Below, piece after piece: positions 29,251 to 57,987 of a stretch of DNA of 64,000 bases. Source of the DNA: a virus (taxonomy: Duplodnaviria; Heunggongvirae; Uroviricota; Caudoviricetes); the IMG/VR virus record IMGVR_UViG_2713896899_000007, positions 7,041-71,040 of that record, one strand, 5' to 3'. The translations under genes were made by a program, and so were the position numbers. Positions within the stretch are counted from its first letter, which is position 1; each line of letters begins with the position of its first letter. Under the pieces are notes generated by a model. It worked only from the letters and a program-made list of their open reading frames with translations. It had not been told where the DNA came from and searched no databases.

Positions 29251-29287
29251 AAATAACAAATTGTTTTCTTGTTGGCGTTAATTATCG
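29251..29287 (-). promoter_or_regulatory. conserved early promoter/leader element
   Basis: Minus strand reads CGATAATTAACGCCAACAAGAAAACAATTTGTTATTT, a member of the roughly 10-copy family. Confidence 0.55.
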
Positions 29288-29438
29288 TTGTACGAATAAG
29301 GCGTCAAAGTGGAAAGTTGCGGTAGCCGGACGGGAACAGGTGGGTTTGTCGGTTGCCTGGAGGTAAGAGGTTGGTGTTTTTAGCCTGCGGGGAACAGGAT
29401 GGTCATTTAAGGCCACCAGCGTTAACTGGTGGCGTTTG

Positions 29439-30137
29439 TCATGCTGGAATCATATCTAATTGAAAAGATTCCATTATATATGTTGGTTCATCGATGTAGT
29501 CCTTCAGCCTATTGTCAAATGACTCAAGCGGATTGTATGGCGGATGATGCCGCTCCGAGTATTCATTTAAAAGATGCCCCATTATCAGTTCGATACCCAT
29601 CTCTACTCCTGAAACTCCGAACCATACATTGTGCGTTAGTTGCTGGGCGTCTGTATCCAGTACGCGAACGCCATCAACAAGATTTATTAGATTCCTGTGG
29701 TTTTCGTGTACTGTAACCTCTCCGCTGGTTAAGTCTATTTCAGCGAGAAAATATGGTCTTTTGCTTCCGTCGGACTTTTTGAAATGACCGTCATAAGCGA
29801 TAGCAAACCACGCTTTACTAAAGTCCTTGTTGGCGTAAGTGGTGCACATACAACTAGGATAATCATCAATGTTAAACCAATCAGGAAACGGATCATCTTT
29901 AGACGAGCCAGCAAAATCATCAGCTAGTTCGTAGCTAATGTCTGGGTTGTACTTGCTGACAAAATCATCTACATCCTCTACATCCTCAACACCTTTCCAA
30001 ACTTTACATCTCTCCGACCAAAAGAATCTCGCAATATCCGAAATGACTGGGAAACGTTTTTCAATTGAATTTATCAACTCTGCATGTTCTTTAAGAGATT
30101 TACGCTTGTTGATAAGCTTCTGAAGATGCGTACTCAT
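29439..30137 (-). CDS. hypothetical protein
   Basis: 232 aa ORF. GATAAT-type promoter at about 30165 with an upstream palindrome at 30188-30210. Confidence 0.6.
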   Translation of the reverse strand: MSTHLQKLINKRKSLKEHAELINSIEKRFPVISDIARFFWSERCKVWKGVEDVEDVDDFVSKYNPDISYELADDFAGSSKDDPFPDWFNIDDYPSCMCTTYANKDFSKAWFAIAYDGHFKKSDGSKRPYFLAEIDLTSGEVTVHENHRNLINLVDGVRVLDTDAQQLTHNVWFGVSGVEMGIELIMGHLLNEYSERHHPPYNPLESFDNRLKDYIDEPTYIMESFQLDMIPA

Positions 30138-30251
30138 TTTTAATTCCTCGTTTGTTTTTGATGTGATAATTATCGCAGTCAGATTAAGGCAGAAAACAAA
30201 TTGTTATCGGGCATAAGAAAATGGCGCGGTTTACGCGCCATTTAAAGAGGA

Positions 30252-30647
30252 TTAAGCGAATACGCTTTCAGGGATTAAGGTGTCAGCAGGAATGCCGGAG
30301 GTAATACGCAGACCGTACTGACCAATCCAGGTGGTGCTGGTGTTCAGGCTGGAGGTGAATACGGAATTAACCATATTCATCATGGTTTCAAACACCTCTT
30401 CATCAACCTGGCGGAAGTAGTTCTCGATTTTCAGCAGCAGCGGGTCAGTTGCATCGAGAATGGACTGGTATTGCGTCGCGTACTCGCCGCCGGAGGCATC
30501 ACCTTTACGCACGATCGTACTGGCCTGTACTTCGGCACCAGTTTCGGTGTTGTACGTAACAACGGTGATTTTTGCCACATTCTTACCTTCGGCGGTTTCA
30601 GAGGCATAGTAAACATCAACTGTCAGTTTTTCGCGTTTAACGGTCAT
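30252..30647 (-). CDS. hypothetical protein
   Basis: 131 aa ORF followed by hairpin aatggcgcg...cgcgccatt (30221-30243). Confidence 0.6.
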   Translation of the reverse strand: MTVKREKLTVDVYYASETAEGKNVAKITVVTYNTETGAEVQASTIVRKGDASGGEYATQYQSILDATDPLLLKIENYFRQVDEEVFETMMNMVNSVFTSSLNTSTTWIGQYGLRITSGIPADTLIPESVFA

Positions 30648-30690
30648 TTCACTCTCCGTAGTGTCTTGGTTATTTTTCTATTTTATAGCC

Positions 30691-30706
30691 GTAAGTATGT
30701 ACTTAC
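30691..30706. repeat. TAAGTA-type palindrome GTAAGTAtgTACTTAC
   Basis: Perfect 7-bp arms, upstream of the 30647 start. Confidence 0.6.
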
Positions 30707-30773
30707 AATACAAAAAAGCCCCGTAAGGATGGCGGGGCTGTCGTACTGTCGACTAATTACCACTTGCACATTA

Positions 30774-31085
30774 TCAGGCTATTGCCATCACTGATGCTCT
30801 CTGAATTTCTTGTTGGGCCACGCGGTTAACTTCCATCAAAGCCAGTTCGAGCTGATGTTCCGGCCACATTCTTTGAAATGCCACCCAGCCTTTTCCACGC
30901 TGGCGACGAACATTCATTACATAACGAGTAAAGGTGTTTTTATCGAAAGACACCGCTGTTTCACGGAACAGACGAATAGAGGTTCCATTGGCAACGATGT
31001 CCAGCAAAGTTAATTGAGCAACTAGCGCAGGCTTCTCTTTTCGCTTCTGGTCTTTGTCCAGACCAAGAACCAATGATTTTTTCAT
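30774..31085 (-). CDS. hypothetical protein
   Basis: ATG 31085 has a GGAG RBS. About 103 aa. Conserved promoter at 31095-31131. Confidence 0.55.
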   Translation of the reverse strand: MKKSLVLGLDKDQKRKEKPALVAQLTLLDIVANGTSIRLFRETAVSFDKNTFTRYVMNVRRQRGKGWVAFQRMWPEHQLELALMEVNRVAQQEIQRASVMAIA

Positions 31086-31094
31086 CACAACTCC

Positions 31095-31131
31095 GTAAAC
31101 AACTTGTTTTCTCAATGGCGTAAATAATACC
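31095..31131 (-). promoter_or_regulatory. conserved early promoter/leader element
   Basis: Minus strand reads GGTATTATTTACGCCATTGAGAAAACAAGTTGTTTAC. Confidence 0.55.
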
Positions 31132-31238
31132 AGTAAGAAAACGGCTACAAAGCATAATGATCAGGTGCATGATCGATATGCAGGTTCCTCCCTGCGGCTA
31201 TAGAGAAATTAAGCCAGCATTGCTGGCTTTGGTTGAGG

Positions 31239-31568
31239 TTACGCGAATACTTCAAGAAACTCCTGAACGTCCCAATGCTGGACAAGGTGAAGATAGACCT
31301 TAGAAATCACGTCATTCTCGCTATCGCATGTGAAGTAGTACTTCTGGCTGCGGTTGTATGTGTCCACACAAAATTCGCTCATATCCATAAAGTCAGCATC
31401 TTCTCCCATGTCGCAAATCATCAAAGCAGGTGCGTCATCACGAGTCATCAGCTCAAGCACCCACCGCGAATTGATCAGAGTGGAAGACCAACCTTCCAGC
31501 TCACAGAACTGGTCAAACTCTTTTTGAGTCAATTTCTTAATTTGGTTGATGTCGATATGTGCAAACAT
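31239..31568 (-). CDS. hypothetical acidic protein
   Basis: ATG 31568 has a TAAGGA RBS. ATG 31589 lies inside the promoter motif. Confidence 0.55.
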   Translation of the reverse strand: MFAHIDINQIKKLTQKEFDQFCELEGWSSTLINSRWVLELMTRDDAPALMICDMGEDADFMDMSEFCVDTYNRSQKYYFTCDSENDVISKVYLHLVQHWDVQEFLEVFA

Positions 31569-31578
31569 AAAGCAATCC

Positions 31579-31614
31579 TTAAACAACATGTTTTCTTATT
31601 GGTGTTATTATCGC
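31579..31614 (-). promoter_or_regulatory. conserved early promoter/leader element
   Basis: Minus strand reads GCGATAATAACACCAATAAGAAAACATGTTGTTTAA. Confidence 0.55.
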
Positions 31615-31928
31615 AATAACGCACAGGCGAAAAAGGATTTTATTCCGGTGAATGTGGTTTTGGCAGTGAGTTTTCAGGTTCAGTACCGAGTACACTTTTT
31701 ACATTATTCTGATTTAGTGGCCGAAGATGGCTGGTGGGCAGAATAATCCTCTCCCCGAAAACCTACTGAAATCGATTGTGACCCGCTGGCTGTCTGGCAC
31801 AATTACGCTGTAGCTGGGCATTCAGAGGGAATCCAGCGGTAAGTTCGCCTGCACGTGAGCGCCTCTCTTCTTACCGCACATTACAGGTGGGTAGCCGCAA
31901 CTCTCCCTCACGCTATACCGGTACGCCA

Positions 31929-32060
31929 CCGTTCCTGAACCGGCATCGAGCCTTTTCCCGAAATCCACACAGGCAACTCTACCGTTTCCCTGAAAATCCC
32001 CAGCCGTTCCCCGAAGGCAACCCAGCCGTTTCTGTAGCGGGATGCAGCCTTTCCCTGTAT
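31929..32060 (+). repeat. iteron cluster B, six copies phased at 22 bp
   Basis: Copy starts at 31929, 31951, 31982, 32004, 32026 and 32048. Consensus is cAGCCGTTTCCCtGAAAA. Confidence 0.75.
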
Positions 32061-32119
32061 GGACCGAAGGCTGACCGTAGGGGTGTTACGGGGGATAAAA
32101 TCAGGAGTTGAATAAATAC

Positions 32120-32990
32120 GAAAAAGGAGGCGACACCCCTACTTCCCTCTCCACTTATACATACCAGGCTTCTTCGCTATACATGTTGTGTTTTCTTCGT
32201 GTTTTATCTGTCTCAACCTCTCTATAGGCGTTAATGCTCACTCCTACCAGAACGTTCTATACGGCGACTATTTCTGTTGGTGGATTAGGTGTGTTGTTTT
32301 CTCTGTCGGTGTATGTGGTTTCGTTCGTTTTGCGGTGGTTCTTCTATGGGGTGTTCTCGTCGTTTTGGTGATTGTTCTTCTCCGTATATGGAGTAATGGC
32401 AGGTGGGCGATTGCTTTCGTTATTGTGTTTGAGTTGTTTGTCTGGAGTGTGTGAAAGGCTTTTGTAGTTATTCGTGTATTGGGTAATGGCGTTTCCCGTG
32501 ATTGTTATGTTTCGTGTCTTTTGGGATTGAGAGAAACCTTGCGGTTACAGGCTTCGTTGGGGTTTCAGTGATTCTGGTGTTTCTTCGCTGTTTGGGGAAT
32601 GGCGTGTCGTGGGTATCGCGCGTGTGAATGTTTTCGGATTGCCTGTGAAAGTTAGGTTGGTTATCCGGTAGCCTGGGAAGAAGAGGTGGGTCTTTTCGGT
32701 AGCCTGCCATAAAGAGGTTGGTTGTTTTTGGGAATGGCATGTGTGTTATTTAGTTGTTTTGTTATGCCTGAAAATAAGTTGTTTATATGGTTGTGTAACG
32801 CAACGGGAGCGATTTTGAGCGTGTGTTTTTGTTGGTAGTGTGTTGAGTCGTCTGTGGTGAAAATTGGACGCTGTGGAGCTGTCTGCTGCGTAGGATTACG
32901 GGTATAAGAAGTGATGTGTGAAAACGTCAATTTTTTAGACCAAATCGGGAGAAAGCGTTGATGTTTCGTTGATCTGTTATTTAGTTGTTT
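32120..32990 (-). ncRNA. candidate long C+A-rich untranslated transcript (hypothetical)
   Basis: A family promoter at 32974-33006 points into a stretch with no credible ORF. The plus strand is 72-85% G+T in the three 60-nt lines I counted. The ends are not defined. Confidence 0.25.
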
Positions 32991-33006
32991 TCTTATTGGT
33001 ATAAAC
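32974..33006 (-). promoter_or_regulatory. conserved early promoter/leader element with no downstream ORF
   Basis: Minus strand reads GTTTATACCAATAAGAAAACAACTAAATAACAG. A partial second copy lies at 32745-32765. Confidence 0.5.
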
Positions 33007-33136
33007 AACTGTAACCTATTGATATTTAAGGATGTGATTGCAGGCATGGAAGGGGAGTAGTGGCGATCAACGGATTCTTATAGAAAAGAATCAAATTGTG
33101 ACCGCCATTATCAACGGTTTGAATATGTTTGCAGAT

Positions 33137-33436
33137 TTACCAGTTCCAGCACTCAAGCCCTTCAACGACCGGCGCACCACAATCAAAATGTACAGAGTCA
33201 AAGCCTACATCAAGTACTTTCTGAATGTTAGCAATCGCGCCTTCGGATATACCATATCGACGCAAGTCGTCTTTCCAGACATCATCCTGTAACCCGGCGT
33301 GGACAATACAACCGCCATCAATTTGTGAAACCCAATCCAGCTCATTGCTTGCGATCATGAATCGGCGAGCATCTTCCTCTGATGTATGAGATGAACTGAT
33401 CAATGCCACCTGGTAGGCTTGGGTAATGTTCAACAT
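33137..33436 (-). CDS. DUF5983-like small protein (recollection of plasmid/prophage family)
   Basis: The ALISSSHTSEED...VHFDCGAPVVEGLECWNW pattern (ISTSH...HFD....L.G...W end) fits the family as I recall it. ATG 33436 has a GGAG RBS. Confidence 0.55.
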   Translation of the reverse strand: MLNITQAYQVALISSSHTSEEDARRFMIASNELDWVSQIDGGCIVHAGLQDDVWKDDLRRYGISEGAIANIQKVLDVGFDSVHFDCGAPVVEGLECWNW

Positions 33437-33447
33437 TTCAACCACTC

Positions 33448-33517
33448 CAAAACAAGTTGTTTTCTTATGTGGCTTATTATCTCTAACAACAAAAGGCAGA
33501 AAACAAATTGTTTTAGG
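33448..33517 (-). promoter_or_regulatory. early promoter with two AAAACAAnTTGTTTT palindromes flanking GATAAT
   Basis: Minus strand reads CCTAAAACAATTTGTTTTCTGCC...GAGATAATAAGCCACATAAGAAAACAACTTGTTTTGG. Confidence 0.6.
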
Positions 33518-33636
33518 TACTGTGTAAATCAGAAGGGATTGTGTCTATATGAAAATGCCCGGCGTGTTGCCGGGCATTGCGAAGAGAGGTTGTTTAATTA
33601 CTTAACCTGGTGGCCAGGTTTAGCACCGGCATCCGG
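33496..33636 (-). repeat. diverged copy of metG 3' end (12 codons + stop) + terminator + phage palindrome
   Basis: Aligns without gaps to 34364-34504 with 18 mismatches. The remnant encodes [12 protein letters not shown]. Confidence 0.9.
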
Positions 33637-34315
33637 CTGCAGGATGGGAGGTTACGTTCGCGCTATGTTGATATTCTGATTGACGCCATTTGTGCCAAAT
33701 CATCTCCTTATAGGATTCATATTGCGTTCGGTACTCTGGCTTCAAGTCAGATATGCCTTTATTCACTACCGCTCGTACGTTTACTAATAATTCGTGCTCA
33801 ATGCCTTTACTCTCTAAATATTCTACAACACCAGCATCGGGGCCAATTGCCCTGCCGTTAAAGACCATTTCCAGCATAAGCTCTGTTTCAGCAAAATAGA
33901 TAGGTGAGGAACCAGGTGCACACAGCTTAATAGCAGTAAGATTGTCCAACAGGTCGGCCAATTTAATCATTCGCGTCTGCATATCCAACGTCTTTTGCAA
34001 TTCGCGAACATTAATAATGAATCTCGCAAGACTATCGCCGTCGTCTGGTTTGGCAACGTTTGCCAGCGCCAGTACCATCTCAGCTACACGATTCCCGAAA
34101 TACTCGCGTACCATTTCGATAGTGATATGGGTATCTTCAATAACACCATGTAATAATGCAGCAGCCTGCATTTCGACAGTGCCTCCGTGCCAAGCAACAA
34201 TCTCACGCACAGAAACTGGGTGTGTAACGTAGTCTTCCCCCGTATATCTACGCTTCTTACCTACACCACCATACACTCCAACGGCAAACATATGAGCTTT
34301 ATCAACAATCGACAT
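33620..34315 (-). CDS. HD-domain (SpoT/Mesh1-like alarmone hydrolase family) protein, HD motif changed to HG
   Basis: GEDYVTHPVSVREIV...AALLHGVIEDT. Paralog of 42687..43328. ATG 34315 has a GGAG RBS. The C-terminal tail runs into the metG remnant. Confidence 0.75.
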   Translation of the reverse strand: MSIVDKAHMFAVGVYGGVGKKRRYTGEDYVTHPVSVREIVAWHGGTVEMQAAALLHGVIEDTHITIEMVREYFGNRVAEMVLALANVAKPDDGDSLARFIINVRELQKTLDMQTRMIKLADLLDNLTAIKLCAPGSSPIYFAETELMLEMVFNGRAIGPDAGVVEYLESKGIEHELLVNVRAVVNKGISDLKPEYRTQYESYKEMIWHKWRQSEYQHSANVTSHPAAGCRC

Positions 34316-34363
34316 AATTTGCTCCATTATTTTGTTAATACTGTTACTCTAACTGATAATAGA

Positions 34364-34504
34364 ACGCAGAAAACAAATTGTTTTAGGGGCTGAGTAAATC
34401 AGAAGGGATTGCGTCTATATGAAAATGCCCAGCAATACGCTGGGCATTGTGAAGAATGGTTGTTTAGTTACTTAACTTGGTGGCCTGGTTTAGCACCAGC
34501 ATCC
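34364..34504 (-). repeat. phage palindrome + metG terminator + metG 3' end (partner of 33496-33636)
   Basis: See the alignment for the partner repeat. The terminator stem is aatgcccagc/gctgggcatt (34422-34446). Confidence 0.9.
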
Positions 34505-36501
34505 GGGCTTAACAGGAAGATATCTTTCCCGCCGGGGCCAGCAGCCATCACCATGCCTTCGGAGATACCGAAGCGCATTTTACGCGGAGCCAGGTTAGCC
34601 ACCATAATTGTGTGACGACCAATCAGTGCCTGTGGGTCTGGATAAGCAGAACGGATGCCTGAGAAGACATTACGCTTTTCACCACCGAGATCCAGTGTCA
34701 GGCGCAACAGTTTGTCAGAACCTTCAACAAACTCCGCGTTTTCAATCAGCGCCACACGCAGGTCAACTTTGGCGAAGTCGTCAAAGGTGATGGTTTCCTG
34801 AATCGGGTCGTCAGCCAGTGGGCCAGTAACTGGCGCGGCAGTAGCTTTCACTTCTTCTTTGGATGCTTCCACCAGTGCTTCCACCTGTTTCATATCGATA
34901 CGGTTATACAGTGCCTTGAACGGATTCACTTTATGGCCCAGCAGCGGTTGCTGGATACCATCCCAGGTCAGTTCTGTATTCAGGAATGCTTCTGCACGTT
35001 CAGTCAGTTTCGGCAGTACCGGTTTCAGATACGTCATCAGCACGCGGAACAGGTTAATGCCCATAGAGCAAATCGCCTGCAGATCTGCATCGCGACCTTC
35101 CTGCTTCGCCACCACCCACGGAGCCTGTTCATCGACATAGCGGTTAGCCAGGTCAGCCAATGCCATGATTTCACGGATAGCTTTACCAAATTCGCGGCTT
35201 TCCCATGCTTCGCCAATCACTTCAGCGGCATCAGTAAAGGTTTTGTACAGTTGCGGGTCAGCCAGTTCGCTTGCCAGCACGCCGTCAAAACGCTTGTTGA
35301 TAAAGCCTGCATTACGGGAGGCCAGGTTAACCACTTTGTTAACAATATCGGCATTCACTCGCTGAACGAAATCCTCCAGGTTGAGATCGATATCATCAAT
35401 GCGCGAAGAGAGTTTCGCAGTGTAGTAGTAACGCAGGCTGTCAGCGTCAAAATGATTCAGCCAGGTGCTGGCTTTAATAAAGGTGCCGCGAGACTTGGAC
35501 ATCTTCGCACCGTTCACCGTCACATAGCCATGAACAAACAGGTTGGTCGGCTTGCGGAAGTTGCTGCCTTCCAGCATGGCAGGCCAGAACAGACTGTGGA
35601 AGTAAACGATATCTTTACCGATGAAGTGGTACAGCTCGGCGGTGGAGTCTTTCTTCCAGTATTCATCGAAGCTGGTGGTATCGCCGCGCTTGTCGCACAG
35701 ATTCTTGAAGGAACCCATGTAGCCAATCGGTGCGTCCAGCCAGACGTAGAAATATTTACCCGGCGCGTTCGGAATTTCAAAACCGAAGTAAGGTGCGTCG
35801 CGGGAGATATCCCACTGTTGCAGACCAGATTCAAACCACTCCTGCATTTTGTTTGCCACCTGCTCCTGCAACGCACCGCTGCGGGTCCATGCCTGCAACA
35901 TTTCGCTGAAAGAGGGCAGATCAAAGAAGAAGTGTTCAGAATCACGCATTACCGGGGTAGCACCAGAAACCACCGATTTCGGCTCGATCAGTTCAGTCGG
36001 GCTGTAGGTCGCGCCACAAACTTCACAGTTATCGCCGTATTGATCTGGCGCTTTACATTTCGGGCAGGTGCCTTTCACAAAACGATCCGGCAGGAACATG
36101 CCTTTTTCCGGGTCGTACAACTGAGAGATAGTGCGGTTTTTAATAAAACCGTTCTCTTTCAGGCGAGTATAAATAAGCTCAGACAGCTGGCGGTTCTCTT
36201 CGCTGTGCGTCGAGTGATAGTTGTCATAGCTGATGTTAAAGCCTGCGAAATCAGTCTGGTGTTCCTGACTCATTTCGCCAATCATCTGCTCCGGTGTGAT
36301 ACCAAGTTGCTGTGCTTTCAGCATGATCGGCGTACCGTGGGCATCGTCGGCACAGATGAAATTAACCTCGTGGCCGCGCATTCGCTGGTAACGAACCCAG
36401 ACATCAGCCTGGATGTGCTCCAGCATATGGCCGAGGTGGATTGAGCCGTTAGCGTACGGCAGCGCGCACGTCACCAGAATTTTCTTCGCGACTTGGGTCA
36501 T
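34468..36501 (-). CDS. metG: methionine--tRNA ligase
   Basis: 677 codons from ATG 36501 ([25 protein letters not shown]...KMSKS...). Near-identical to E. coli MetG as I recall it. The 43-codon upstream extension in the track is spurious. Confidence 0.97.
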
Positions 36502-36658
36502 AGTAGGCATTACTTCTTTGTAGTGAAAAGGGGCTTGATAGTAACAAAATGGCCTTATGTCTGCCATGTGATAACAGCATTTCTCATAAATGATTAAATG
36601 TCGTAGCTGGAGTACACTACAAGGCGACAATTGCGCAAATTAAAATAAAGGAGACGGG

Positions 36659-37759
36659 ATGAGCGAGTCCAAATCGCCGGATGCCCTGAGAGCAATGGTA
36701 GCCGGTACGCTGGCTAATTTTCAGCACCCAACCCTGAAACACAACCTGACTACGCTTAAAGCGTTACACCATGTTGCGTTGATGGATGACACACTGCATG
36801 TCGAACTAATCATGCCTTTCGTGTGGAATAAGCCTTTTGAAGACCTGAAAGAGCAATGTAGTGGTGATCTGCTCCGTATCACTGGCGCAAAGGCTATTGA
36901 CTGGAAGCTGTCGTACAACATTGCCACGCTTAAGCGCGTCAAAAACCAACCAGGCATTAATGGTGTTAAGAATATTATCGCCGTAAGCTCAGGCAAGGGC
37001 GGTGTAGGCAAATCGTCCACAGCAGTAAACTTGGCACTGGCGTTGGCTGCTGAAGGTGCGAAAGTTGGTATTTTGGATGCCGATATCTACGGGCCATCAA
37101 TACCAACCATGCTGGGCGCGGAAAACCAACGTCCAACCTCACCGGACGGTACTCACATGGCACCTATCATGTCTCATGGCCTGGCAACCAATTCAATTGG
37201 CTATCTGGTCACCGACGACAATGCAATGGTGTGGCGTGGACCGATGGCCAGCAAGGCGCTGATGCAGATGTTGCAGGAAACACTGTGGCCTGATCTGGAC
37301 TATCTCGTTCTCGATATGCCGCCGGGCACTGGTGATATTCAGTTGACGCTGGCGCAGAACATTCCTGTAACTGGTGCGGTTGTGGTAACTACGCCGCAAG
37401 ACATCGCGCTGATCGATGCGAAGAAAGGCATTGTGATGTTCGAAAAAGTCGAAGTGCCAGTACTGGGTATCGTTGAAAACATGAGTGTGCATATTTGCAG
37501 TAACTGCGGTCATCACGAGCCAATTTTTGGCACCGGTGGCGCACAGAAACTGGCCGAGAAATACAACACGCAGTTGTTAGGCCAAATGCCACTTCATATC
37601 TCTCTTCGTGAAGATCTGGATAACGGAACACCAACCGTTATTAGTCGTCCAGATAGTGAATTTACGGCTATTTATCGTGACCTCGCAGATCGCGTTGCTG
37701 CCCAAATGTATTGGCAAGGTGAAGTAATACCTGGCGAAATCGCATTCCGCGCAGTGTGA
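36659..37759 (+). CDS. apbC: Fe-S cluster carrier ATPase Mrp/ApbC
   Basis: AVSSGKGGVGKSS P-loop and a CSNCGHH motif. Divergent from metG as in the E. coli chromosome. Confidence 0.95.
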   Translation: MSESKSPDALRAMVAGTLANFQHPTLKHNLTTLKALHHVALMDDTLHVELIMPFVWNKPFEDLKEQCSGDLLRITGAKAIDWKLSYNIATLKRVKNQPGINGVKNIIAVSSGKGGVGKSSTAVNLALALAAEGAKVGILDADIYGPSIPTMLGAENQRPTSPDGTHMAPIMSHGLATNSIGYLVTDDNAMVWRGPMASKALMQMLQETLWPDLDYLVLDMPPGTGDIQLTLAQNIPVTGAVVVTTPQDIALIDAKKGIVMFEKVEVPVLGIVENMSVHICSNCGHHEPIFGTGGAQKLAEKYNTQLLGQMPLHISLREDLDNGTPTVISRPDSEFTAIYRDLADRVAAQMYWQGEVIPGEIAFRAV

Positions 37760-37762
37760 TAA

Positions 37763-37787
37763 AAAGGTGGTGCATTGCACCACCTAA
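37763..37787. terminator. bidirectional hairpin between mrp and humD-like gene
   Basis: aggtggtgca t tgcaccacct. Confidence 0.6.
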
Positions 37788-37796
37788 ACAGTTCTC

Positions 37797-38186
37797 CTAC
37801 ATCACAGGACAATCATCAAACTCGCCACTTCTTGCGTCGTTGATAATGTGAGTGATCACACCAAACACGGCATTGCTGCCCGTGCATCCATCGTCATCCT
37901 TTGGCAATGCTTCCTTCTTACCAGTTCTTAAATCCTCCAGATGCTGACGTGGATACTTCCGGTATCTTTTTACGCGATATTCCCCATCCAGAGCGCATAC
38001 AAGCAGAGAACCATCAACCGGGGTAAGTGAGGAATCGACCACCAGCAATGCGCCCTGCAATATTCCCTCACGATGATGGCTGTCAGCCGCTCTCATGAAG
38101 TAGGTCGCTGAAGGATGTCTAATTATCTGCTGATCAAGAGAAATACGGCTCTCAGCATAATCCGCCGCAGGAGAAGGGAAGCCCAT
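37797..38186 (-). CDS. humD: UmuD'-like S24 peptidase-fold protein lacking the cleavable N-terminus (phage P1 HumD-like)
   Basis: Starts MGFPSPAADY, which aligns to the residues just after the UmuD Cys24-Gly25 cleavage site. The Ser (ADSH) and Lys (VKRY) positions are retained. A LexA box lies upstream. Confidence 0.8.
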   Translation of the reverse strand: MGFPSPAADYAESRISLDQQIIRHPSATYFMRAADSHHREGILQGALLVVDSSLTPVDGSLLVCALDGEYRVKRYRKYPRQHLEDLRTGKKEALPKDDDGCTGSNAVFGVITHIINDARSGEFDDCPVM

Positions 38187-38202
38187 AGCGTTTTGCCCTC
38201 AA

Positions 38203-38222
38203 TACTGTTCATTTATACAGTA
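38203..38222 (-). promoter_or_regulatory. LexA (SOS) box TACTGTATAAATGAACAGTA
   Basis: Perfect CTG-N10-CAG with TA-rich spacer, 17 nt upstream of the humD-like ATG and overlapping -10-like TATACT/TATAAA. Confidence 0.8.
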
Positions 38223-38358
38223 TACATGAAAGAAGCTCACTCAGTGCAACTGATCGGTACATAGCACCAGACAAAGGAACATTATTTTCTCGAACAAGAA
38301 AAGGTAGAAAACAAATTGTTTAAGGCCACAGCTAGTGGCCTTAATGGAGAAGGGATGC

Positions 38359-38883
38359 TTATTGGCTATGGCTAAAAATCAAATGAGACACTTCATTTGG
38401 TTGTAGCTCGTCAAGATCCGGGGCCACAAAACCTTTTCCGAAAGACTTCACAAGTGATTCACCTGCCGCATCATTGTCACCTATTACGCGAAAGTCATAC
38501 GGCAGCATTGCCAGTTGACGACGTAATCCTGCTGAGAAAGTCGAACCTAACAGCGCCCACGAATTTCCGCCCGCGTTGTGCACTGCTGCACTTTTAAAAA
38601 TCGACTCAGTTATCCATATCGGTCCATCTTTTAAAGGAAGATAGGTTCCCCATAGTAGCTGTCTGCCGTGCGCACGTGTGAAATACCGGGCCATCTTCGG
38701 ATTGCTATGCTGCTTAGGAGCGCCTGGTCTGTATGTCTGATACCCGGCCAACATCCCATCAAACCTGTATAGAGGGAATGTAACAACTCCTTCGCTTTCA
38801 TCGATCCACTGTCTATATGGATGCACATCATGGCGGTAGTTACGAGTTAGCAAATGAGCTTCCAGCTTTCCAAATTTAGTCAT
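38359..38883 (-). CDS. Toprim-domain protein
   Basis: The ITESIFKS...VIGDNDAAGE pattern (E...DxD). ATG 38883 has a GAGGGA RBS. Confidence 0.6.
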   Translation of the reverse strand: MTKFGKLEAHLLTRNYRHDVHPYRQWIDESEGVVTFPLYRFDGMLAGYQTYRPGAPKQHSNPKMARYFTRAHGRQLLWGTYLPLKDGPIWITESIFKSAAVHNAGGNSWALLGSTFSAGLRRQLAMLPYDFRVIGDNDAAGESLVKSFGKGFVAPDLDELQPNEVSHLIFSHSQ

Positions 38884-38896
38884 AACTTCGCATCCC

Positions 38897-39751
38897 TCAT
38901 AACACTTCCCATTTATCACCATATTTCTCCATAGCTCTTAGCCAATAAACATGGCCACTAGGCATAGTGATGTGAGGCTCGCCAAACTCTTCTCCATGCA
39001 CATCAAAGATGTCCCCAACAGAGAATTGGGGGATTTCTGTGCCGTTTTCACCTATATGCGTAATTCGTATACGTTTCGGTTGAGATTCGCCCCCTTTGAG
39101 CGAGTTGTTCACGGCTCTTGCAATCTTCTCCCGCAATTGCTGCGTTCCGTGATACGTAACCGCAATATCCCTCAACTCGTTCACCAGTTCTCGAATCTGG
39201 TGATCTTTAAGCTCATTATTTGAGTGATTGGCAACAACTCTGGTTAATTCACCCTTGTCTTTTGCTCTTACGTATGCAGCTCTTGTGCATTCGACCCATG
39301 TATTACCGCCTACATTAACTTCGTAGATTAGGCTGGACTTATCTGTCAATTCGGAACAAATACGGGCCGTGGTCTGGCAACTAGAGCATTCGCAGTTATC
39401 GCGGAAACCGTGGTCTACTGGCTTCGGTTTCACATCATCAACTTTTTCTACCCTATTGGAATTTAAATACTTCGAAGCCTTGCTATGCCAATCGCTGGTT
39501 TTAGGATCTTGTCCATCCATCAAACGCCAGGCTTCAGCGATTAACTCATAACTAGTGACTGTAGCTTCCTGAGCATCACCAATAAGTCGTGTAATCTCTC
39601 TTTCAAGCCGACCGCCTAACTCCGTTTTAGTGCAATGTTCTGACCAATCGCCAGCCTCAAGAAGCGCGAGAATGTTTAAAATATCGTCCAATAGAACGGT
39701 AGTATTTTCGACTTCCTTCTGAAGCTCTCCGGCTGCTGATTTATGCGTCAT
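38897..39751 (-). CDS. hypothetical protein
   Basis: 284 aa ORF in the early operon. Confidence 0.6.
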   Translation of the reverse strand: MTHKSAAGELQKEVENTTVLLDDILNILALLEAGDWSEHCTKTELGGRLEREITRLIGDAQEATVTSYELIAEAWRLMDGQDPKTSDWHSKASKYLNSNRVEKVDDVKPKPVDHGFRDNCECSSCQTTARICSELTDKSSLIYEVNVGGNTWVECTRAAYVRAKDKGELTRVVANHSNNELKDHQIRELVNELRDIAVTYHGTQQLREKIARAVNNSLKGGESQPKRIRITHIGENGTEIPQFSVGDIFDVHGEEFGEPHITMPSGHVYWLRAMEKYGDKWEVL

Positions 39752-40002
39752 TCATCATCCTCATCACAGGTTGAGAGTAGTGGGTTAGTCATTCGTCCTA
39801 CTTGAGTGGCGTAGCCACGCCGACAGAGATTGCGCAGCACACTGTATATTTCGAACATCTCGGTTCGTTCATCGCCAACATCAAGCTCAGATGCCATAGC
39901 GTGGCATTCAGCCGCGAGAGCCGATATTTTCTGAAATAACTCTGCTTTATTCACTGTTCGACTCCTGCGGCGGTTCTGGTAGTGGCATCCAGTGTGTGAC
40001 AT
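39748..40002 (-). CDS. hypothetical protein
   Basis: 84 aa, ATGA-type overlap. Confidence 0.45.
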   Translation of the reverse strand: MSHTGCHYQNRRRSRTVNKAELFQKISALAAECHAMASELDVGDERTEMFEIYSVLRNLCRRGYATQVGRMTNPLLSTCDEDDE

Positions 40003-40246
40003 TGCTAATCAGACCATATTCATTAGTTTGAGGATGATTGCCGTTATCGTCTCCGTATTTAAGACTCTCCATAAAGCCATAATGCCTATCACCATTAACG
40101 CTCACAAAGCCGTAATAAGCAGGTATAACGCCGATCTCACACGTAACCAGCAAAGGAAAACTAGTTCTCCAATTTAGCTCGCCGATTACAGGCATCTGCT
40201 CACTACAGCTTATCCAACCATCAGGAGTAACCGGATAGTTGCGCAT
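39947..40246 (-). CDS. DUF551-like protein
   Basis: The C-terminal ...VTHWMPLPEPP motif is typical of DUF551 as I recall it. Confidence 0.6.
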   Translation of the reverse strand: MRNYPVTPDGWISCSEQMPVIGELNWRTSFPLLVTCEIGVIPAYYGFVSVNGDRHYGFMESLKYGDDNGNHPQTNEYGLISNVTHWMPLPEPPQESNSE

Positions 40247-40545
40247 TGCGACCTTAAATGCCTCATTTTCAGATTATTGAACTGACGCCCGTTTAGAGGG
40301 CCATGTTCTGTCAACATGTTGTGTAATTTCCATGCCGCGTCGTTAACTTCGTTGGATGATCTGGGAGGCAACTTGCAAGTTTGGCTTACAGGTTCTGCAC
40401 TATCAGCTTCGCGCCGCTTCTGTAGCTCTGCTGCCATCGCTCTCACGACTTCAACTGGTGCCCTTGCAGCAAACTCTATGTTGGTGATCAGCTCATTAAG
40501 ATATTGCTCGCCTGGATACTGTTTCTTATCGGTTATAGTAGTCAT
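40210..40545 (-). CDS. hypothetical protein
   Basis: ATG 40545 directly follows the upstream stop. Confidence 0.5.
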   Translation of the reverse strand: MTTITDKKQYPGEQYLNELITNIEFAARAPVEVVRAMAAELQKRREADSAEPVSQTCKLPPRSSNEVNDAAWKLHNMLTEHGPLNGRQFNNLKMRHLRSQCATIRLLLMVG

Positions 40546-40546
40546 A

Positions 40547-40969
40547 TCACTCTCCTTTTCCCTGAAGCATAGCGGCACGGCAGGCGTTCCATCCATCTGC
40601 GTAACAATCTCTGTGCGTCTTGAAATTTGTCACCGCTCTTGGTACATCCTTTACATCTATTTCATCAGGCACAATCGGCGCTGGAGGGGCTGCGTAGACC
40701 TCAATAACTCCATTATCAATAGGCCACTCCCCATCCTTGATGTAGTCACTTGTGCCGTCAACTTGCTGTTCTGCAATGTGGAATGCACCTATTGGTTTTG
40801 CTTCCAGCGAGGCCAGTGCAATTCGTGCCAGTTTTAGATCTCGTTCAACCATCTCAATAACAACTTTGCAGTCCGCACCTTCTTTACTAACACGTCCTTT
40901 CAAGTCTTCCAGATAACTAACGCTTTCGCGTGCATGGGAGATTAACTGTTCTTTGGTTAAGGTGGTCAT
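40547..40969 (-). CDS. ead/Ea22-like protein
   Basis: Coiled-coil N-terminus and a C-terminal ...CYADGWNACRAAMLQ motif common in lambdoid Ea22-region proteins (from memory). Confidence 0.5.
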   Translation of the reverse strand: MTTLTKEQLISHARESVSYLEDLKGRVSKEGADCKVVIEMVERDLKLARIALASLEAKPIGAFHIAEQQVDGTSDYIKDGEWPIDNGVIEVYAAPPAPIVPDEIDVKDVPRAVTNFKTHRDCYADGWNACRAAMLQGKGE

Positions 40970-43328: not shown

Positions 43329-43447
43329 TCTTAACTCCGTTGTTTTCTAGTTGTGGTTATTTTCACAAATAAGAAAAGGTAGAAAACAATTTATTTAAGG
43401 CCACAACTTATGGCCTTTATTTATTCATGCAGAAGAATTTGTAGCGT

Positions 43448-44532: not shown

Positions 44533-44593
44533 GTGTTTTTCTCTTATCGTTTAGTTACTACATTCTTACACAAATTAAGTAAGTATTTACCTA

Positions 44594-46279: not shown

Positions 46280-46289
46280 AATTACACCA

Positions 46290-46325
46290 TTAAATAATTT
46301 GTTTTCTTATTGGTGTAATTATCGC
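46290..46325 (-). promoter_or_regulatory. conserved early promoter/leader element
   Basis: Minus strand reads GCGATAATTACACCAATAAGAAAACAAATTATTTAA. Confidence 0.55.
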
Positions 46326-46420
46326 AAACTTGAAAAGGCATAAAAGCTGCATTCATAGGCGTTACAGCAGATTTAAGGCGTAAAAATGGGGGCTTTCGCC
46401 CCCTGTCGACTGGTGCAGTA

Positions 46421-46987
46421 TTAGAGTGCGTATTGCGTTTTGTGCGGCTGCTTATTCAAGTCATGGCGATGCGTGAGCTCCCGCATCATGTCTTCAAGGC
46501 GACTCTTTGTGTCGTCGAGCTGGTCGGCCATTGCACCTAAAAGCTGGCGAACGGCCATCGGATTGTCGCTGTTTAGTGATGGCATTTTATAACCTGCTTT
46601 AGAAGACATAAGGTTAATTGCAGACATCAACATCGTTAGAGAGGATTTAAGCCCGGCAATTTCACGATCTTTGCTGGCAATAATCGTCTCACTTTTGTTA
46701 CCGTCATGAGTTCCTTGAGTCTCGCTCACCATATCCAAAGTCGCTTGCAACTTATCGGCTCTCTCTTTTTCAGCAAGGTAATGAACGCCGAAATGATGTG
46801 CTAAAGCTACAACCTGAGTTGGTTCTTCAAAGGTGGAATTAAAATTAAGTACTGTAAACAGTCTCTCAAATATGGAAACGTCTTCTGTTCCCCGAACAAT
46901 GCCTAACATTTTGACAAGTTCATTAGCATCCATTTCTTCGAATAGGGCGTTTTGTTCATCAGCTATTGCTTTGCATTTCTCGCACAT
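46421..46987 (-). CDS. hypothetical protein
   Basis: 188 aa ORF. Promoter element at 47004-47037. Confidence 0.55.
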   Translation of the reverse strand: MCEKCKAIADEQNALFEEMDANELVKMLGIVRGTEDVSIFERLFTVLNFNSTFEEPTQVVALAHHFGVHYLAEKERADKLQATLDMVSETQGTHDGNKSETIIASKDREIAGLKSSLTMLMSAINLMSSKAGYKMPSLNSDNPMAVRQLLGAMADQLDDTKSRLEDMMRELTHRHDLNKQPHKTQYAL

Positions 46988-47126
46988 GTGTTTTCCTTAA
47001 TGCTTAAACAAGTTGTTTTCTTATTGGCTTTATTGTGATGTGGCATATAAGGGGAGCAAGCTAAACGTAAAGGTGCAAACTCTCTATTTTGGTCAACGAA
47101 ACACAAGGGCCATTTGGCCCTTGTCA

Positions 47127-47285
47127 TTAACACTTTGCTTTACGGACTAGCGGATAGGCGAAGTAGATCGCCAAACCAATGAGGACGCCATCAGAAATGA
47201 CAGACATCATCTTTCCCGTAAAATCCACCAACACCGCCATCACCAGAAGAGCAATGACGGTCACAAGCCGGAATCTCTCAAGCAT
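47127..47285 (-). CDS. small two-TM membrane protein (52 aa, not in ORF track)
   Basis: My translation gives MLERFRLVTVIALLVMAVLVDFTGKMMSVISDGVLIGLAIYFAYPLVRKAKC. The ATG overlaps the TerB stop (TAATG). Followed by hairpin 47103-47124. Confidence 0.4.
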   Translation of the reverse strand: MLERFRLVTVIALLVMAVLVDFTGKMMSVISDGVLIGLAIYFAYPLVRKAKC

Positions 47286-47710
47286 TAGAGATAAGCATCC
47301 AGTGACAACTGAAGCGCCTGGGCGATCTTTTTCAGTGCCTGCTCTTCTTGTTCACCAATGCCGTCCTGGTCGGCAATATCAAGGCACAGACACAGAACAT
47401 CGACCGCCTCTGGAGTGCCCGCAATATCAGCCAGCTCACGCATAGCCTGTGCATTAGCGGAACGAGGGGACGCTTCGTAACGAGCACGGATATTGGCGCT
47501 CATTTGGGCAATCTCACCAGCAAACGGAGAAAACGCAGGCAGAGCTGCAATTGTCTTCTCAAGAATGGCAATTTCTTTTGCGTCACATGTGCCGTCGGCA
47601 TAGGAGATCATGTACGCGCCCCACACGGTGGCCTCAACCGCATCACGGTTCTCCATTTTTTTGACTTCGATAACTGCTTTACGAGTTTTCTTTTTGAAGA
47701 AACCTAACAT
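47285..47710 (-). CDS. TerB-like (tellurite-resistance family) protein
   Basis: 141 aa. ADGTCDAKEIAILEK...DQDGIGEQEEQALKKIAQAL shows the two-repeat TerB pattern. Confidence 0.65.
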   Translation of the reverse strand: MLGFFKKKTRKAVIEVKKMENRDAVEATVWGAYMISYADGTCDAKEIAILEKTIAALPAFSPFAGEIAQMSANIRARYEASPRSANAQAMRELADIAGTPEAVDVLCLCLDIADQDGIGEQEEQALKKIAQALQLSLDAYL

Positions 47711-47803
47711 GTGTTTTCCTTTTGTTATTTGTCAAAACAAGTTGTTTTCTAGTTAAATAAATTGCTTACGCAAAGACGGTCAATGCATATGCACTAACAA
47801 CCG

Positions 47804-47992
47804 TCAGAAGTAACCAAGTACCGAACCGACTGGAAAAATAAAAATCCCAACTACACGAGCCAAGGTCATGCCAGCCTGAAACTGGAGATCGCCAGAGCAA
47901 ACAAGTTTTATAATGTTCGATACCCAACCGGCGGCCATGAGGGCCAGAATTGCCAGCCAAATTTTTCCAAAGTGATTTGAAAACCAGTTCAT
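47804..47992 (-). CDS. small membrane protein (2 TM)
   Basis: TAAGG RBS 7 nt upstream. Hydrophobic segments IWLAILALMAAGW and VVGIFIFPVGSVLGYF. Confidence 0.5.
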   Translation of the reverse strand: MNWFSNHFGKIWLAILALMAAGWVSNIIKLVCSGDLQFQAGMTLARVVGIFIFPVGSVLGYF

Positions 47993-48001
47993 ACAACCGC
48001 C

Positions 48002-55663: not shown

Positions 55664-55834
55664 AAAAACCTCACAAAGATAAGTAACCACTTATTCATTG
55701 CGTGAGTTTACATTCATTGAGAGAACAAGACCAGACAGATAAAAAAATGGTGGCCATAGGCCACCAAAAACGAATAGTTGTTTCAGAAATTTAACGCGCC
55801 AACGCAATATACACAGATAGATAACTACCTACAA

Positions 55835-56704
55835 TTATTTTTTGATCATTCCGTACATTGCTGAGGCTTTAGCTTGCTCAACAAAGGAGGATAAATCGAC
55901 ATCACTATAGGTTGGAGACTTCAGAATCTTTCCATCGGAAATTCGAAAACCGATCATCTTATCGGTGCCATCAGCATGGCGAAATCCCAGGTCAGAAGAG
56001 TCGTATTTGCAGTTGGCCACAGCATGGCGACGCTCTTCGGCATCTGCAGGCCATAATTTTGTCATGTTGGACCGATGAATTTCGCCAACCAGCTCGACGA
56101 CATTGATACCGAGGAAATCAGCCAGTCGATAGGTCATCATGCACGCCACATAGATTTTGTTCATTACACGGCGCAGTTCCTGAATCAGCTCAGAATCCTT
56201 AACAGTCTTGTTCTCAAGTTTATCTGCCAGCTCTTCGAGCATACATGACGCCTCACGAGCTTCCTGAAATGGCATTGCCATATCATCGAAAACAGTGTTA
56301 CCAGGCACAAAAATTGTCTGCATAAAGCGATCAATGCTCTGTTCCTGCGTGTAATAGGTCATGCCGGTAGAAATACCACCTTTGATGGCGACCATCGTAC
56401 CAACACCAACGTATAAAAAGTCGGCCATTGCATCCAGCAGTTGCTCAATATCCCCATTCATTGCGGCTGGAATACCTTCCACTACAGCTTCTTCATGAAT
56501 CAGGCTTGCACGGAGACGAAGCAGCTCTGGTGTCGGCATAACGCGTCTCGGATGCTGGAAGAGTTCATGAAACTGATCGACCATCTTGTAAATACTTTCA
56601 GTGGCTACACCATGGCCTTCATGCAACTCATATGGTTCTGGCTTAAATCCAATGAGTCGATCGGTGGCAAGTTTCAGGTGGTCAGTCAGTTTGGTAAAGT
56701 TCAT
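55835..56704 (-). CDS. all-alpha NTP pyrophosphohydrolase (MazG/HisE-like)
   Basis: LIHEEAVVE...DAMADFLYV and IHRSNMTKL motifs. Confidence 0.55.
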   Translation of the reverse strand: MNFTKLTDHLKLATDRLIGFKPEPYELHEGHGVATESIYKMVDQFHELFQHPRRVMPTPELLRLRASLIHEEAVVEGIPAAMNGDIEQLLDAMADFLYVGVGTMVAIKGGISTGMTYYTQEQSIDRFMQTIFVPGNTVFDDMAMPFQEAREASCMLEELADKLENKTVKDSELIQELRRVMNKIYVACMMTYRLADFLGINVVELVGEIHRSNMTKLWPADAEERRHAVANCKYDSSDLGFRHADGTDKMIGFRISDGKILKSPTYSDVDLSSFVEQAKASAMYGMIKK

Positions 56705-56781
56705 GCTAGTTTTGTTCCTTCTTAATTCTTGTGATCCATTGTGGCCCAGCGTTGCCAGGCCACATAATGCTTTGTATCGGT

Positions 56782-57924
56782 TTACAGGTCTGCAAACTGG
56801 CTTAGAGAAGCCTTATCCACAGTAGAATCGATCTGACCTACCAGATATGTGCTTTGCTCTGCCTCTTGTGGTGCAATTTGCAGTGTGTCGGTTAACAACC
56901 ACTTGTTCATCCAGACCAGCGGATCGGTGGTAACCTCTGGAAATAAAGCCTTCAGGCCAAGACGATTCATAGCCAGATTGGTGCGGTATTTTACATAGGT
57001 CTTCAGAATATCCGCGTTTAAACCAATCATCGAACCGTCTTTGAAGAGATAGTCTGCCCAGTTCATTTCTTGTTCGGCGACTGATTTCATGGTGTCGTAA
57101 ATGACGTTTTCTTCATCAGCAGCAATCTCTTTCCACAATAAACCTTCGCGACCGGTACGCATGAAGCGGATCATGCGTTCAGTTCCTTCGCAATGCAGAG
57201 CTTCATCACGGGCAATAAAGCGCATAATTTTGGTGTTACCCTCAAGCAACTTCCGTTCGCCAAAGGCAAACGTACATGCAAAACTTACATAGAAACGGAT
57301 CGCCTCAAGCGCATTAATGGACACCAACGTGCGGAAAAGCTGACGGTGCAAAGGGTATGGCTCCCAGCCATATTCATTTACGTACAGACGTTCAAACTCC
57401 TTCTCACCTAACGACTGGCGCTCGCAGGTCATCCCATAAAGCCTGTCATATTCAGCAGAGATACTGATCGCTCGGTTGATGATTTCTTCATCCGTAACAA
57501 TACCGTCAAAAACAATGCTCGGATCGTCCACCATGCCACGAATAATGTGGGTGTAGCTGCGGCTATGGATAGTCTCAGAGAAAGACCATGTTTCAACCCA
57601 CGTTTCCAGTTCAGGAATAGAGATAAGCGGCAGCAACGTTGCATTTGGGCTACGTCCCTGAACTGAATCGAGTAACGTTTGATAACGGAGATTGCTCAGA
57701 AAAATGTGACGTTCGTGGTCCCGCAGCTTCGTGTTGAAGTCGATACGATCGCTCGAAATATCAACTTCTTCCGGCCGCCAGAAGAAAGACAATTGACGTT
57801 CAATCAACTTTTCAAAATCACGGTATTTTTGCTGATCGTAACGTGCCACGTTGACAGATTGTCCGAGGAACATAGGCTCTTTGGTTGCATCATTAGCACC
57901 CAAACGGAACGTTGAATATGACAT
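56782..57924 (-). CDS. nrdB: ribonucleotide reductase class Ia beta subunit
   Basis: [34 protein letters not shown]... closely parallels E. coli NrdB. ATG 57924. Confidence 0.95.
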
Positions 57925-57950
57925 GTGTTTTTCCTTTTGCTTTTTGATGT

Positions 57951-57987
57951 GTTTAAACAAGTTGTTATCTTATTTGTTTAAACAAGG
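57951..57987 (-). promoter_or_regulatory. conserved early promoter/leader element
   Basis: Minus strand reads CCTTGTTTAAACAAATAAGATAACAACTTGTTTAAAC. Confidence 0.5.

Follow-up and report, generated by a model that had tools for sequence, protein, structure and literature searches.

A palindromic site embedded in promoters across SSU5-type phage-plasmids: a candidate operator family for a genome-wide repressor regulon

A 15-base near-palindrome, AAAACAAnTTGTTT(T/A), was found to be repeated at 15 full sites and 2 half-sites, all intergenic, in a 64,000-nt stretch of viral DNA (IMG/VR record IMGVR_UViG_2713896899_000007, positions 7,041 to 71,040; the whole stretch is referred to here as the window, and coordinates are counted from its first letter). 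This site family is real, strongly non-random, conserved and embedded in promoters, and at many operons the repeated site overlaps core promoter elements as is typical of repressor operators. With moderate confidence, we favor the interpretation that the copies serve as DNA operators for a repressor whose regulon spans the whole genome of SSU5-type phage-plasmids. A preliminary description of the same DNA had listed 15 of these copies as early promoter or leader elements, and had spoken of a prophage.

Homology and the annotation of Escherichia phage Cyrano identify the window as part of an SSU5-type phage-plasmid and not of an integrated prophage, and the latter term is replaced here on the basis of kinship to Cyrano and SSU5. 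At positions 29000-48000, the identity to Escherichia phages PhiR41_1, CMS-2020a and Cyrano is 95-96% across 74-82% of the length, and Salmonella phage SSU5 and Klebsiella phage-plasmids are matched more distantly. When mapped through the Cyrano annotation, the window was found to carry tail and head genes (1-19 kb), a ParB-like/ATPase operon (19-22 kb), an opposite-strand block that begins with a UvsW-like helicase gene (22.4-28.1 kb) and a long minus-strand series of accessory, nucleotide-metabolism and recombination genes (28.7-64 kb).

A search for AAAACAANTTGTTT allowing up to one mismatch returned 26 strand matches in the window compared to 0.27 expected, a count that was equaled in none of 100 shuffles. 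By use of a 25-nt weight matrix derived from the sites, the 15 full sites scored 22-34 bits, and the same matrix scored no position above 15 bits in 1.64 Mb of unrelated enterobacterial DNA sampled around flagellin genes. Each of the 15 coordinates listed previously proved to be a real copy when checked in its sequence context. Two of these (32974 and 43337) are half-sites that retain only the left half (AAGAAAACAAC), and no gene start lies downstream of the one at 32974. The range given earlier (29251-57987) was incomplete, as two more tandem copies are present at 19038 and 19063 ahead of the small-terminase gene (terS). The flanks reported for the two placements of the site were likewise recovered, with GATAAT as -10 element plus CCAAYAAG for the first (here class a), and for the second (class b) CTGCCTTTT along with a hairpin or terminator ahead of it.

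Class a sites have the same orientation as the downstream gene and start 12 nt past a GATAAT-like -10 element. In six genomes, a GATAAT, TATTAT or GAAAAT hexamer precedes almost every class a site at this distance, and the six-genome consensus reads TTkaCGCCtTTT, about 9 nt, (TGn)GATAAT, wAmr, CCAAYAAG, AAAACAAnTTGTTTA and aGG. By eye from the alignment, a TGn extension (TGCGATAAT, TGAGATAAT or TGGTATTAT) precedes the -10 element in about half of the class a promoters compared to approximately 6% expected. The -35 positions are occupied by TTTTAC, TTGGAC or TTTTCT, followed by GCCTTTT. If transcription starts about 7 nt after the -10 element, class a sites are predicted to span approximately +6 to +20; in this descriptive sense, the alternative raised earlier, of a 5' leader common to the messages, is true of the class a copies, which are predicted to be transcribed. 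The distance from the end of the site to the ATG codon is variable (9-31 nt; 10-35 nt had been reported first) and the distance to the -10 element is fixed at 12 nt. The position of class a sites is thus set by the promoter and not by the site of ribosome binding. The annotated start codons of CYRAN_105 and CYRAN_110 (Cyrano 12575 and 10477; window 31589) fall inside or upstream of the operator site, and an in-frame ATG with a proper Shine-Dalgarno (SD) sequence is located 21 nt further downstream for CYRAN_105 (window 31568); both annotated starts are probably mis-called.

Class b sites are inverted, are followed by CTGCCTTTT, and lie over the -35 region with their centers near -38, at 0-40 nt past the hairpin or terminator of the preceding gene. 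In promoters with both classes, the site centers were always exactly 51 bp apart, with an intervening sequence that differs from case to case. Such pairs were detected in the window (33456/33507 and 43339/43390), in Cyrano (15209/15260), in SSU5 (three), in Klebsiella pJN2-26 (two) and in an Enterobacter kobei-type element (L234). A distance of 51 bp corresponds to about five helical turns, which would place both operators on about the same face of the DNA. Of the dual-operator architecture suggested at the outset, the arrangement itself is therefore retained: one copy over the -35 region, one just past the -10 element at a fixed distance, and a 51-bp spacing that is invariant in five genomes.

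Symmetry profiles were generated from 36 class a and 18 class b non-redundant sites, with orientation chosen by matrix score such that part of the left/right difference is due to selection. The palindrome was found to be confined to positions ±1 to ±6 (AAACAAnTTGTTT), with A at both -7 and +7. One side alone, promoter-proximal in both classes, carries an AG at -9/-8. All 18 upstream (class b) sites share one orientation. Natural variants were detected in one half of the site (CAT at 31587, TTA at 46298 and TGG at 19063), and in none is the change compensated in the other half.

The motif is kept with the same flanks in SSU5 (about 20 sites in 100 kb), in Klebsiella pJN2-26 (15 sites in 48 kb) and in more distant relatives of Nissabacter and Enterobacter type, two of which have FljA-like proteins 53-57% identical to that encoded in the window. 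The core does not vary among the Escherichia, Salmonella, Klebsiella, Nissabacter-type and Enterobacter-type elements, in contrast to its drifting flanks. Sites of Cyrano beyond the window were found before terS, parA, the DnaB-like helicase gene, cobT and CYRAN_58. The label 'early' is consequently too narrow, as the motif precedes the small-terminase (late) operon, parA, the replicative helicase gene, cobT and nrdB. Sites at the head of the late operon and of the partition operon thus point to a regulon that is genome-wide and not limited to early promoters.

Expression of the motif-bearing operons was assessed from per-gene RNA sequencing data of Cyrano in lysogens of E. coli LF82 (PMC9928086 supplement), presented as log2(5+FPKM) (fragments per kilobase per million reads) with a background of about 3.3; the values are those of Cyrano, a 95-98% identical relative, and not of the element in the window. 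Most operons with sites were found to be expressed at low, background levels, the parA operon and two others excepted. In broth, the dual promoters of CYRAN_101 and CYRAN_93 gave 2.8-3.4 and 2.6-3.1, respectively, and CYRAN_108, which has a class b site only, gave 2.3-3.6; all three climb to approximately 5.5 inside macrophages. The terS gene, with its two class a sites, was at about 3. Genes with a class a site only ranged from 2.3 to 6 (CYRAN_58, _47, _32, _106, _87, _85 and _70) or reached up to about 7.5 (CYRAN_111 and CYRAN_105), and the parA operon, which has a strong class a site, was at 8-10. Such values are compatible with repression that is graded and becomes tight only where two sites are present. 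The opposite-strand block, which is conserved, was expressed in the same lysogens, with UvsW at 7.4-8.3, a 92-residue protein (CYRAN_117) at 8.6-9.9 and the FljA-like protein (CYRAN_114) at 7-8.

The mechanism that we favor would be as follows. Operators would be built into a family of sigma-70 promoters that have a GATAAT -10 element, often extended by TGn, and a weak -35 element. One operator (class a) would lie at approximately +6 to +20, and the tightest promoters would add an inverted one (class b) at approximately -46 to -31. An element-encoded regulator would bind the roughly 20-26 sites per genome and block the binding or escape of RNA polymerase, such that accessory, nucleotide-metabolism, helicase and late (terS) operons would be kept low during plasmid life; a single class a site would give partial control and dual sites tight control. 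Occupancy of the sites, its repressive effect, the start points of transcription and the protein responsible are all inferred.

Several observations weigh against this explanation. The parA operon is well expressed despite its strong class a site, and values of up to about 7.5 were obtained for CYRAN_111 and CYRAN_105; a single site would thus repress only in part, at best. The sites are oriented, with the AG at -9/-8 promoter-proximal only, A instead of T at +7 and a left half better kept than the right, which is not what a plain symmetric homodimer predicts. No helix-turn-helix repressor conserved across the family was found among the window proteins. The symmetric dimeric repressor proposed originally is for these reasons not upheld: the sites are asymmetric, and no helix-turn-helix protein could be assigned to them. 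In addition, the non-palindromic CCAAYAAG that precedes class a sites shows the same degree of conservation as the palindrome and could reflect a constraint at the level of RNA or of the start site. A consensus promoter scan also failed to call the class a promoters; their -35 elements are weak and are thus missed by the scan.

Whether the site acts as DNA or as RNA is central to the main competing explanation, in which an FljA-family protein binds the 5' leader shared by class a transcripts (AAYAAGAAAACAAnUUGUUUAAGG) and blocks translation or destabilizes the message. We regard this explanation as unlikely, while the observations that speak for it are several. A full-length FljA-family gene is present in the window and in essentially all SSU5-like elements, the gene is expressed in Cyrano lysogens, and transcription is predicted to run through class a sites. 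Proteins of the FljA type reportedly prevent translation of fliC mRNA (PMC2652032). The Salmonella/Citrobacter fliC leader includes CCAATAAC...CAAGTTGT and is the sole type of flagellin leader with significant local similarity to the leaders of the element (P about 0.003). The leader shared by class a transcripts is A-rich on its left, where by eye it can be read as ARN triplets, and rich in U on its right. By contrast, the class b copies are inverted and lie upstream of promoters and behind terminators, and cannot be included in the regulated mRNA. These copies have no -10 element of their own at the class a distance, except for 34377 (TTGTTA-17-GATAAT by promoter scan), and a role as leaders of divergent plus-strand transcripts was rejected in general with this one exception; class b sites would thus act only as DNA and not via the mRNA of the downstream gene. 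The site is fixed relative to the -10 element and variable relative to the SD and ATG, and the mirrored C/G of an exact 6+1+6 palindrome would be pointless in RNA, where no stable structure or compensatory change was found. As an RNA hairpin the palindrome has a folding energy of just -0.7 kcal/mol, entire leaders are no more stable than shuffled ones (z-scores about 0), and a search against Rfam gave no match at the gathering score; with no covariation either, a structured RNA hairpin or riboregulator was rejected. The ungapped site matrix scores the fliC leader at -8.6. Levels of mRNA are themselves low in lysogens, though decay of the mRNA could produce the same result. Taken together, the placement of class b sites, the strict 51-bp phasing and the lack of RNA structure favor a protein that acts on double-stranded DNA to block RNA polymerase.

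Three further explanations place the origin of the pattern elsewhere. A promoter-plus-leader module that is spread with gene cassettes by recombination, is retained for the good transcription and translation it affords and needs no dedicated factor, with the palindrome incidental or a patch of homology for the exchange of cassettes, is quite improbable in our estimation. Conservation extends over the entire block from about -35 to +22 and is not confined to the palindrome, and homology breakpoints fall near sites more often than under uniform placement. When the window was compared to Cyrano, SSU5 and pJN2-26 by local BLAST, 4-5 of the 12-18 block ends per comparison within 29-48.5 kb were located within 60 bp of a site (0.9-1.3 expected; P 0.009-0.03 under a uniform null model that ignores the preference of breakpoints for intergenic DNA). 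The coincidence with recombination junctions that had been proposed is thus present to a modest degree only, as breakpoints favor intergenic DNA anyway. At the clearest junction, an HD-domain gene (33620-34327) is inserted between two copies of the metG 3' end, terminator and class b site (33495-33640 and 34360-34480), and its paralogue at 42687-43328 (about 70% identical) likewise follows a class b site. A module of this type does not explain why the palindrome also occurs alone and inverted at -38 without the rest of the module, why the 51-bp spacing is kept though the intervening sequence differs, why the core is invariant as the flanks drift, or why promoters with a good extended -10 element remain at background in lysogens.

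A still smaller probability is assigned to dispersed partition or silencing sites, that is, centromere-like targets of a ParB-type protein that also silences nearby promoters, as reportedly occurs upon binding of partition proteins to the dispersed SopB sites of phage-plasmid N15 and by KorB of RK2. A strong copy is present in the parA promoter of Cyrano and SSU5, two proteins with a ParB N-terminal domain are encoded at 21013-22379, class b sites are centered near -38 as KorB class I operators are, and the 6+1+6 form of the site is that of the KorB operator. However, the KorB operator sequence itself is not matched by the sites, a centromere does not need about 20 promoter-embedded copies in strict geometry, and both ParB-like genes are silent in Cyrano lysogens (log2 2.3-3.7); the pair is unlikely to provide the lysogenic repressor for this last reason. 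Binding of the sites by a host transcription factor conserved in Enterobacterales is the least credible, indeed a very remote prospect. The motif is unchanged in elements from at least five host genera, which would suit such a factor, but the 1.64 Mb of enterobacterial chromosome sampled around flagellin genes had no copies of 16 bits or more, and the motif is not known to match the IHF, Fis, CRP, FNR, LexA, PhoP and Fur consensus sequences, for which no search was made.

Returning to a repressor encoded by the element, the leading candidate is the FljA-family protein encoded at 26162-26686, the Cyrano orthologue of which is expressed in lysogens. Homologues were found almost only on SSU5-like elements of 105-111 kb, in at least six genera. 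An AlphaFold model (predicted local distance difference test, pLDDT, 83) has two tandem units, each of one helix and five strands, with no helix-turn-helix, and is predicted to represent a tandem Sm/Hfq-like fold; a sequence search for solved relatives found none. A conserved PRDY or SRRDFF motif is located ahead of each unit. The pseudo-dimer generated by this duplication would be suited to a palindrome of incomplete symmetry. Flagellin leaders were retrieved from 105 genomes, and the Salmonella/Citrobacter fliC leader (GCCCAATAACATCAAGTTGTAATTGATAAGGAAAAGATCATG) showed the gapped similarity described above; an ungapped matrix match of fliC leaders to the site was negative, and the similarity is considered a lead and not a demonstration. 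The only known target leader of Salmonella FljA includes the same CAAGTTGT core. It is conceivable, if doubtful, that the FljA-family protein is a global regulator that reads the palindrome as DNA at -38 and as DNA or RNA at the leaders, and that Salmonella FljA is a domesticated copy from a phage-plasmid. No paper in the literature searched linked FljA with phage-plasmids or described the motif.

Two other proteins were considered as trans factors. The 92-residue protein is encoded in the same operon as the FljA-like protein, and in lysogens no conserved gene of the counter-strand operon is expressed more highly than that of its Cyrano orthologue, CYRAN_117. A ribbon-helix-helix assignment (pattern CQVALS...MSKAEVINAILE) was unconfirmed, with an AlphaFold pLDDT of 49, no hits in Pfam, NCBIfam or PDB, and a probability of 1.4% by hhalign against CopG. 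The orthologue of the 88-residue protein was at log2 of about 3 (near background) in lysogens grown overnight in lysogeny broth and at 4.2-6.6 in other conditions. CYRAN_45, annotated as putative repressor in Cyrano, was rejected as it resides in an integrase-bearing insert that SSU5 lacks while keeping the motif; its promoter region has no site.

A second palindrome family that is independent of the first, TA(A/G)GTAA-N4-TTAC(T/C)TA, was observed with 9 hits in the window compared to 0.19 expected (22380-22397, 3591, 15581, 19123/19130, 44576, 48627, 50840 and 55680). It is found at 6-18 copies per genome in Cyrano, SSU5 and pJN2-26, for the most part between genes and immediately next to a -10-like element. 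One copy without any deviation is located on the promoter (TTATAAT) of the lysogen-expressed operon for UvsW, the 92-residue protein and the FljA-like protein. This family suggests a second regulator, possibly autoregulatory.

Several known systems provide points of comparison. The C1 repressor of P1 has more than 17 dispersed operators, and the arrangement reported here is similar in that a phage-plasmid has one short operator at many promoters, by which a single protein could hold lytic and accessory operons down while the plasmid is maintained. The P1 operators differ in being 17-bp and asymmetric (ATTGCTCTAATAAATTT), unlike the 6+1+6 palindrome with fixed placement at +13 and -38; ATTGCTCTAATAAATTT had 0 matches in the window at up to 3 mismatches. 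Streptomyces phage phiC31 has conserved early promoters and conserved inverted repeats that are bound by its repressor, and is alike in that many near-identical promoters are tied to a repeated inverted-repeat operator throughout the genome; host, promoter type and sequence differ, and the phiC31 repressor is known. In RK2/IncP-1, KorA and KorB act at palindromic operators at -10 or -39/-40 in many operons. The likeness lies in palindromic operators at defined positions in many operons, partition genes included, with graded control; the difference is that the downstream operator of the present element lies past the -10 element, at about +13, instead of covering it, and that the ParB-like genes are silent in lysogens. 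The KorB operator TTTAGCSGCTAAA had 1 match with 2 mismatches in the window, inside a coding region, compared to 1.5 expected.

Mycobacteriophage L5 (cluster A) has stoperators, tens of short oriented intergenic repressor sites of which some lie inside transcribed leaders (PMC6550527). The sites described here are also short, oriented and intergenic across the genome; stoperators, however, are asymmetric 13-mers that act on elongation, unlike a palindromic core locked to promoter geometry. Similar to the FljA/fliC system of Salmonella, the window encodes a full-length member of the family, and the fliC leader shares CCAATAA...CAAGTTGT with the leaders of the element. Salmonella FljA differs in having one known target, compared to about 20 putative sites here, a third of which are outside any regulated mRNA.

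SSU5-type phage-plasmids are common: pHCM2 of Salmonella Typhi is one, and numerous others come from Escherichia, Klebsiella and Enterobacter, some of them with resistance genes; none of the papers searched described how these elements control plasmid maintenance versus lytic growth. A 15-bp site with about 20 copies per genome, fixed promoter positions and conservation across genera defines a regulon and provides a probe for its regulator, and the site predicts which accessory genes are silenced in carriers. If it is true that an FljA-family protein is the regulator, this would explain the origin and the fold of the flagellar phase-variation repressor. The sites and the candidate trans factors of the window are listed in Table 1.

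Table 1. Copies of the palindromic site and candidate trans factors in the 64-kb window. Scores are from the 25-nt weight matrix; a, class a; b, class b; ORF, open reading frame.
Feature	Position	Center	Strand	Details
Class a, first of two tandem copies in terS leader	19056..19070	19063	-	AAAACAAGTTGGTTA, 22.4 bits; kept in Cyrano and SSU5
Class a, second tandem copy, 25 bp from first	19031..19045	19038	-	29.7 bits; followed by hairpin and T-run 19030-19002, terS ATG 18991
Class a, leader of ORF 28751-29233	29253..29267	29260	-	GATAAT -10 element 12 nt upstream
Class b over -35 region, promoter of ORF 29439-30137	30193..30207	30200	+	30.6 bits; 11 nt past intrinsic terminator
Class a	31096..31110	31103	-	28.2 bits; TGGTATTAT extended -10 element upstream; SD GGAG and ATG 31085 directly downstream
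Class a, AAAACATGTTGTTTA, left-half change uncompensated	31580..31594	31587	-	31.4 bits; TGCGATAAT at 31615-31607
Degenerate class a copy, left half only (CCAATAAGAAAACAACTAAATAACA)	32977..32991	32984	-	13.7 bits; heads gene-poor stretch with A/C-rich minus strand; half-site recurs in SSU5 (12761) and element L233 (19129)
Complete dual module, drives ORF 33137-c.33436	33449..33514	33456 (a), 33507 (b)	-	class b 33500-33514 and class a 33449-33463 (32.8 and 32.3 bits for the pair); centers 51 bp apart; order: class b, CTGCCTTTT, GATAAT 33481-33476, CCACATAAG, class a
Class b, after metG terminator, before HD-domain gene 33620-34327	34370..34384	34377	+	34.0 bits; homology breakpoint 34363/34382/34387
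Class b abutting hairpin 38344-38320	38308..38322	38315	+	33.7 bits; upstream of UmuD/HumD-like gene 37797-38186
Dual module, drives HD-domain gene 42687-43328	43332..43397	43339 (a), 43390 (b)	-	full class b 43383-43397 and class a half-site 43332-43346 (AGAAAACAACGGAG); centers 51 bp apart; same arrangement in SSU5 at 17641/17692
Class a, right half TTATTT, after TGCGATAAT	46291..46305	46298	-	30.0 bits; leader of DUF4942 methylase gene 44594-46279
Class a, leader of ORF 46421-46987	47005..47019	47012	-	33.3 bits
Class a, leader of TciA/TerB-like gene 47285-47710	47734..47748	47741	-	27.2 bits
Class a, leader of nrdB (56782-c.57924)	57954..57968	57961	-	27.8 bits; kept in SSU5 and pJN2-26
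Candidate trans factor, FljA-family protein	26162..26686		+	opposite to motif-bearing genes; full-length PF03614 'repressor of phase-1 flagellin', E 5e-81
Candidate trans factor, 92-residue protein	24006..24284		+	same operon as FljA-like gene; always adjoins helicase gene, near FljA-like gene
Candidate trans factor, 88-residue protein	19188..19454		-	weak winged-helix similarity; adjoins tandem terS sites

Other features were observed in the neighborhood of the sites. A 53-nt palindrome (19110-19162; arms CTGCTTCCGTATATAT / ATATATACGGAAGCAG) is located between the gene of the 88-residue protein and the terS promoter, approximately where the linear SSU5 and Cyrano records in GenBank have their first base, and may be a packaging-related site or a terminator. 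Within the terS leader (19002-19030, minus strand), a conserved hairpin, AGAGCGC-N6-GCGCTCT, is followed by GTGTGTTTT just before the SD and ATG; in SSU5 and pJN2-26 the stem is kept and the loop is variable. This hairpin resembles a leader terminator, in which case the late operon would be controlled by antitermination. A gene-poor stretch of approximately 1.5 kb (about 31650-33130) is 68-72% identical in SSU5 and pJN2-26 and may represent a non-coding RNA, an origin or both. Its minus strand is A/C-rich and G-poor between about 33020 and 32180, with the half-site leader at the start and a terminator-like hairpin (32140-32125) at the end, and at 32080-31940 there are about six spaced, iteron-like repeats that resemble GGAAAMGGC.

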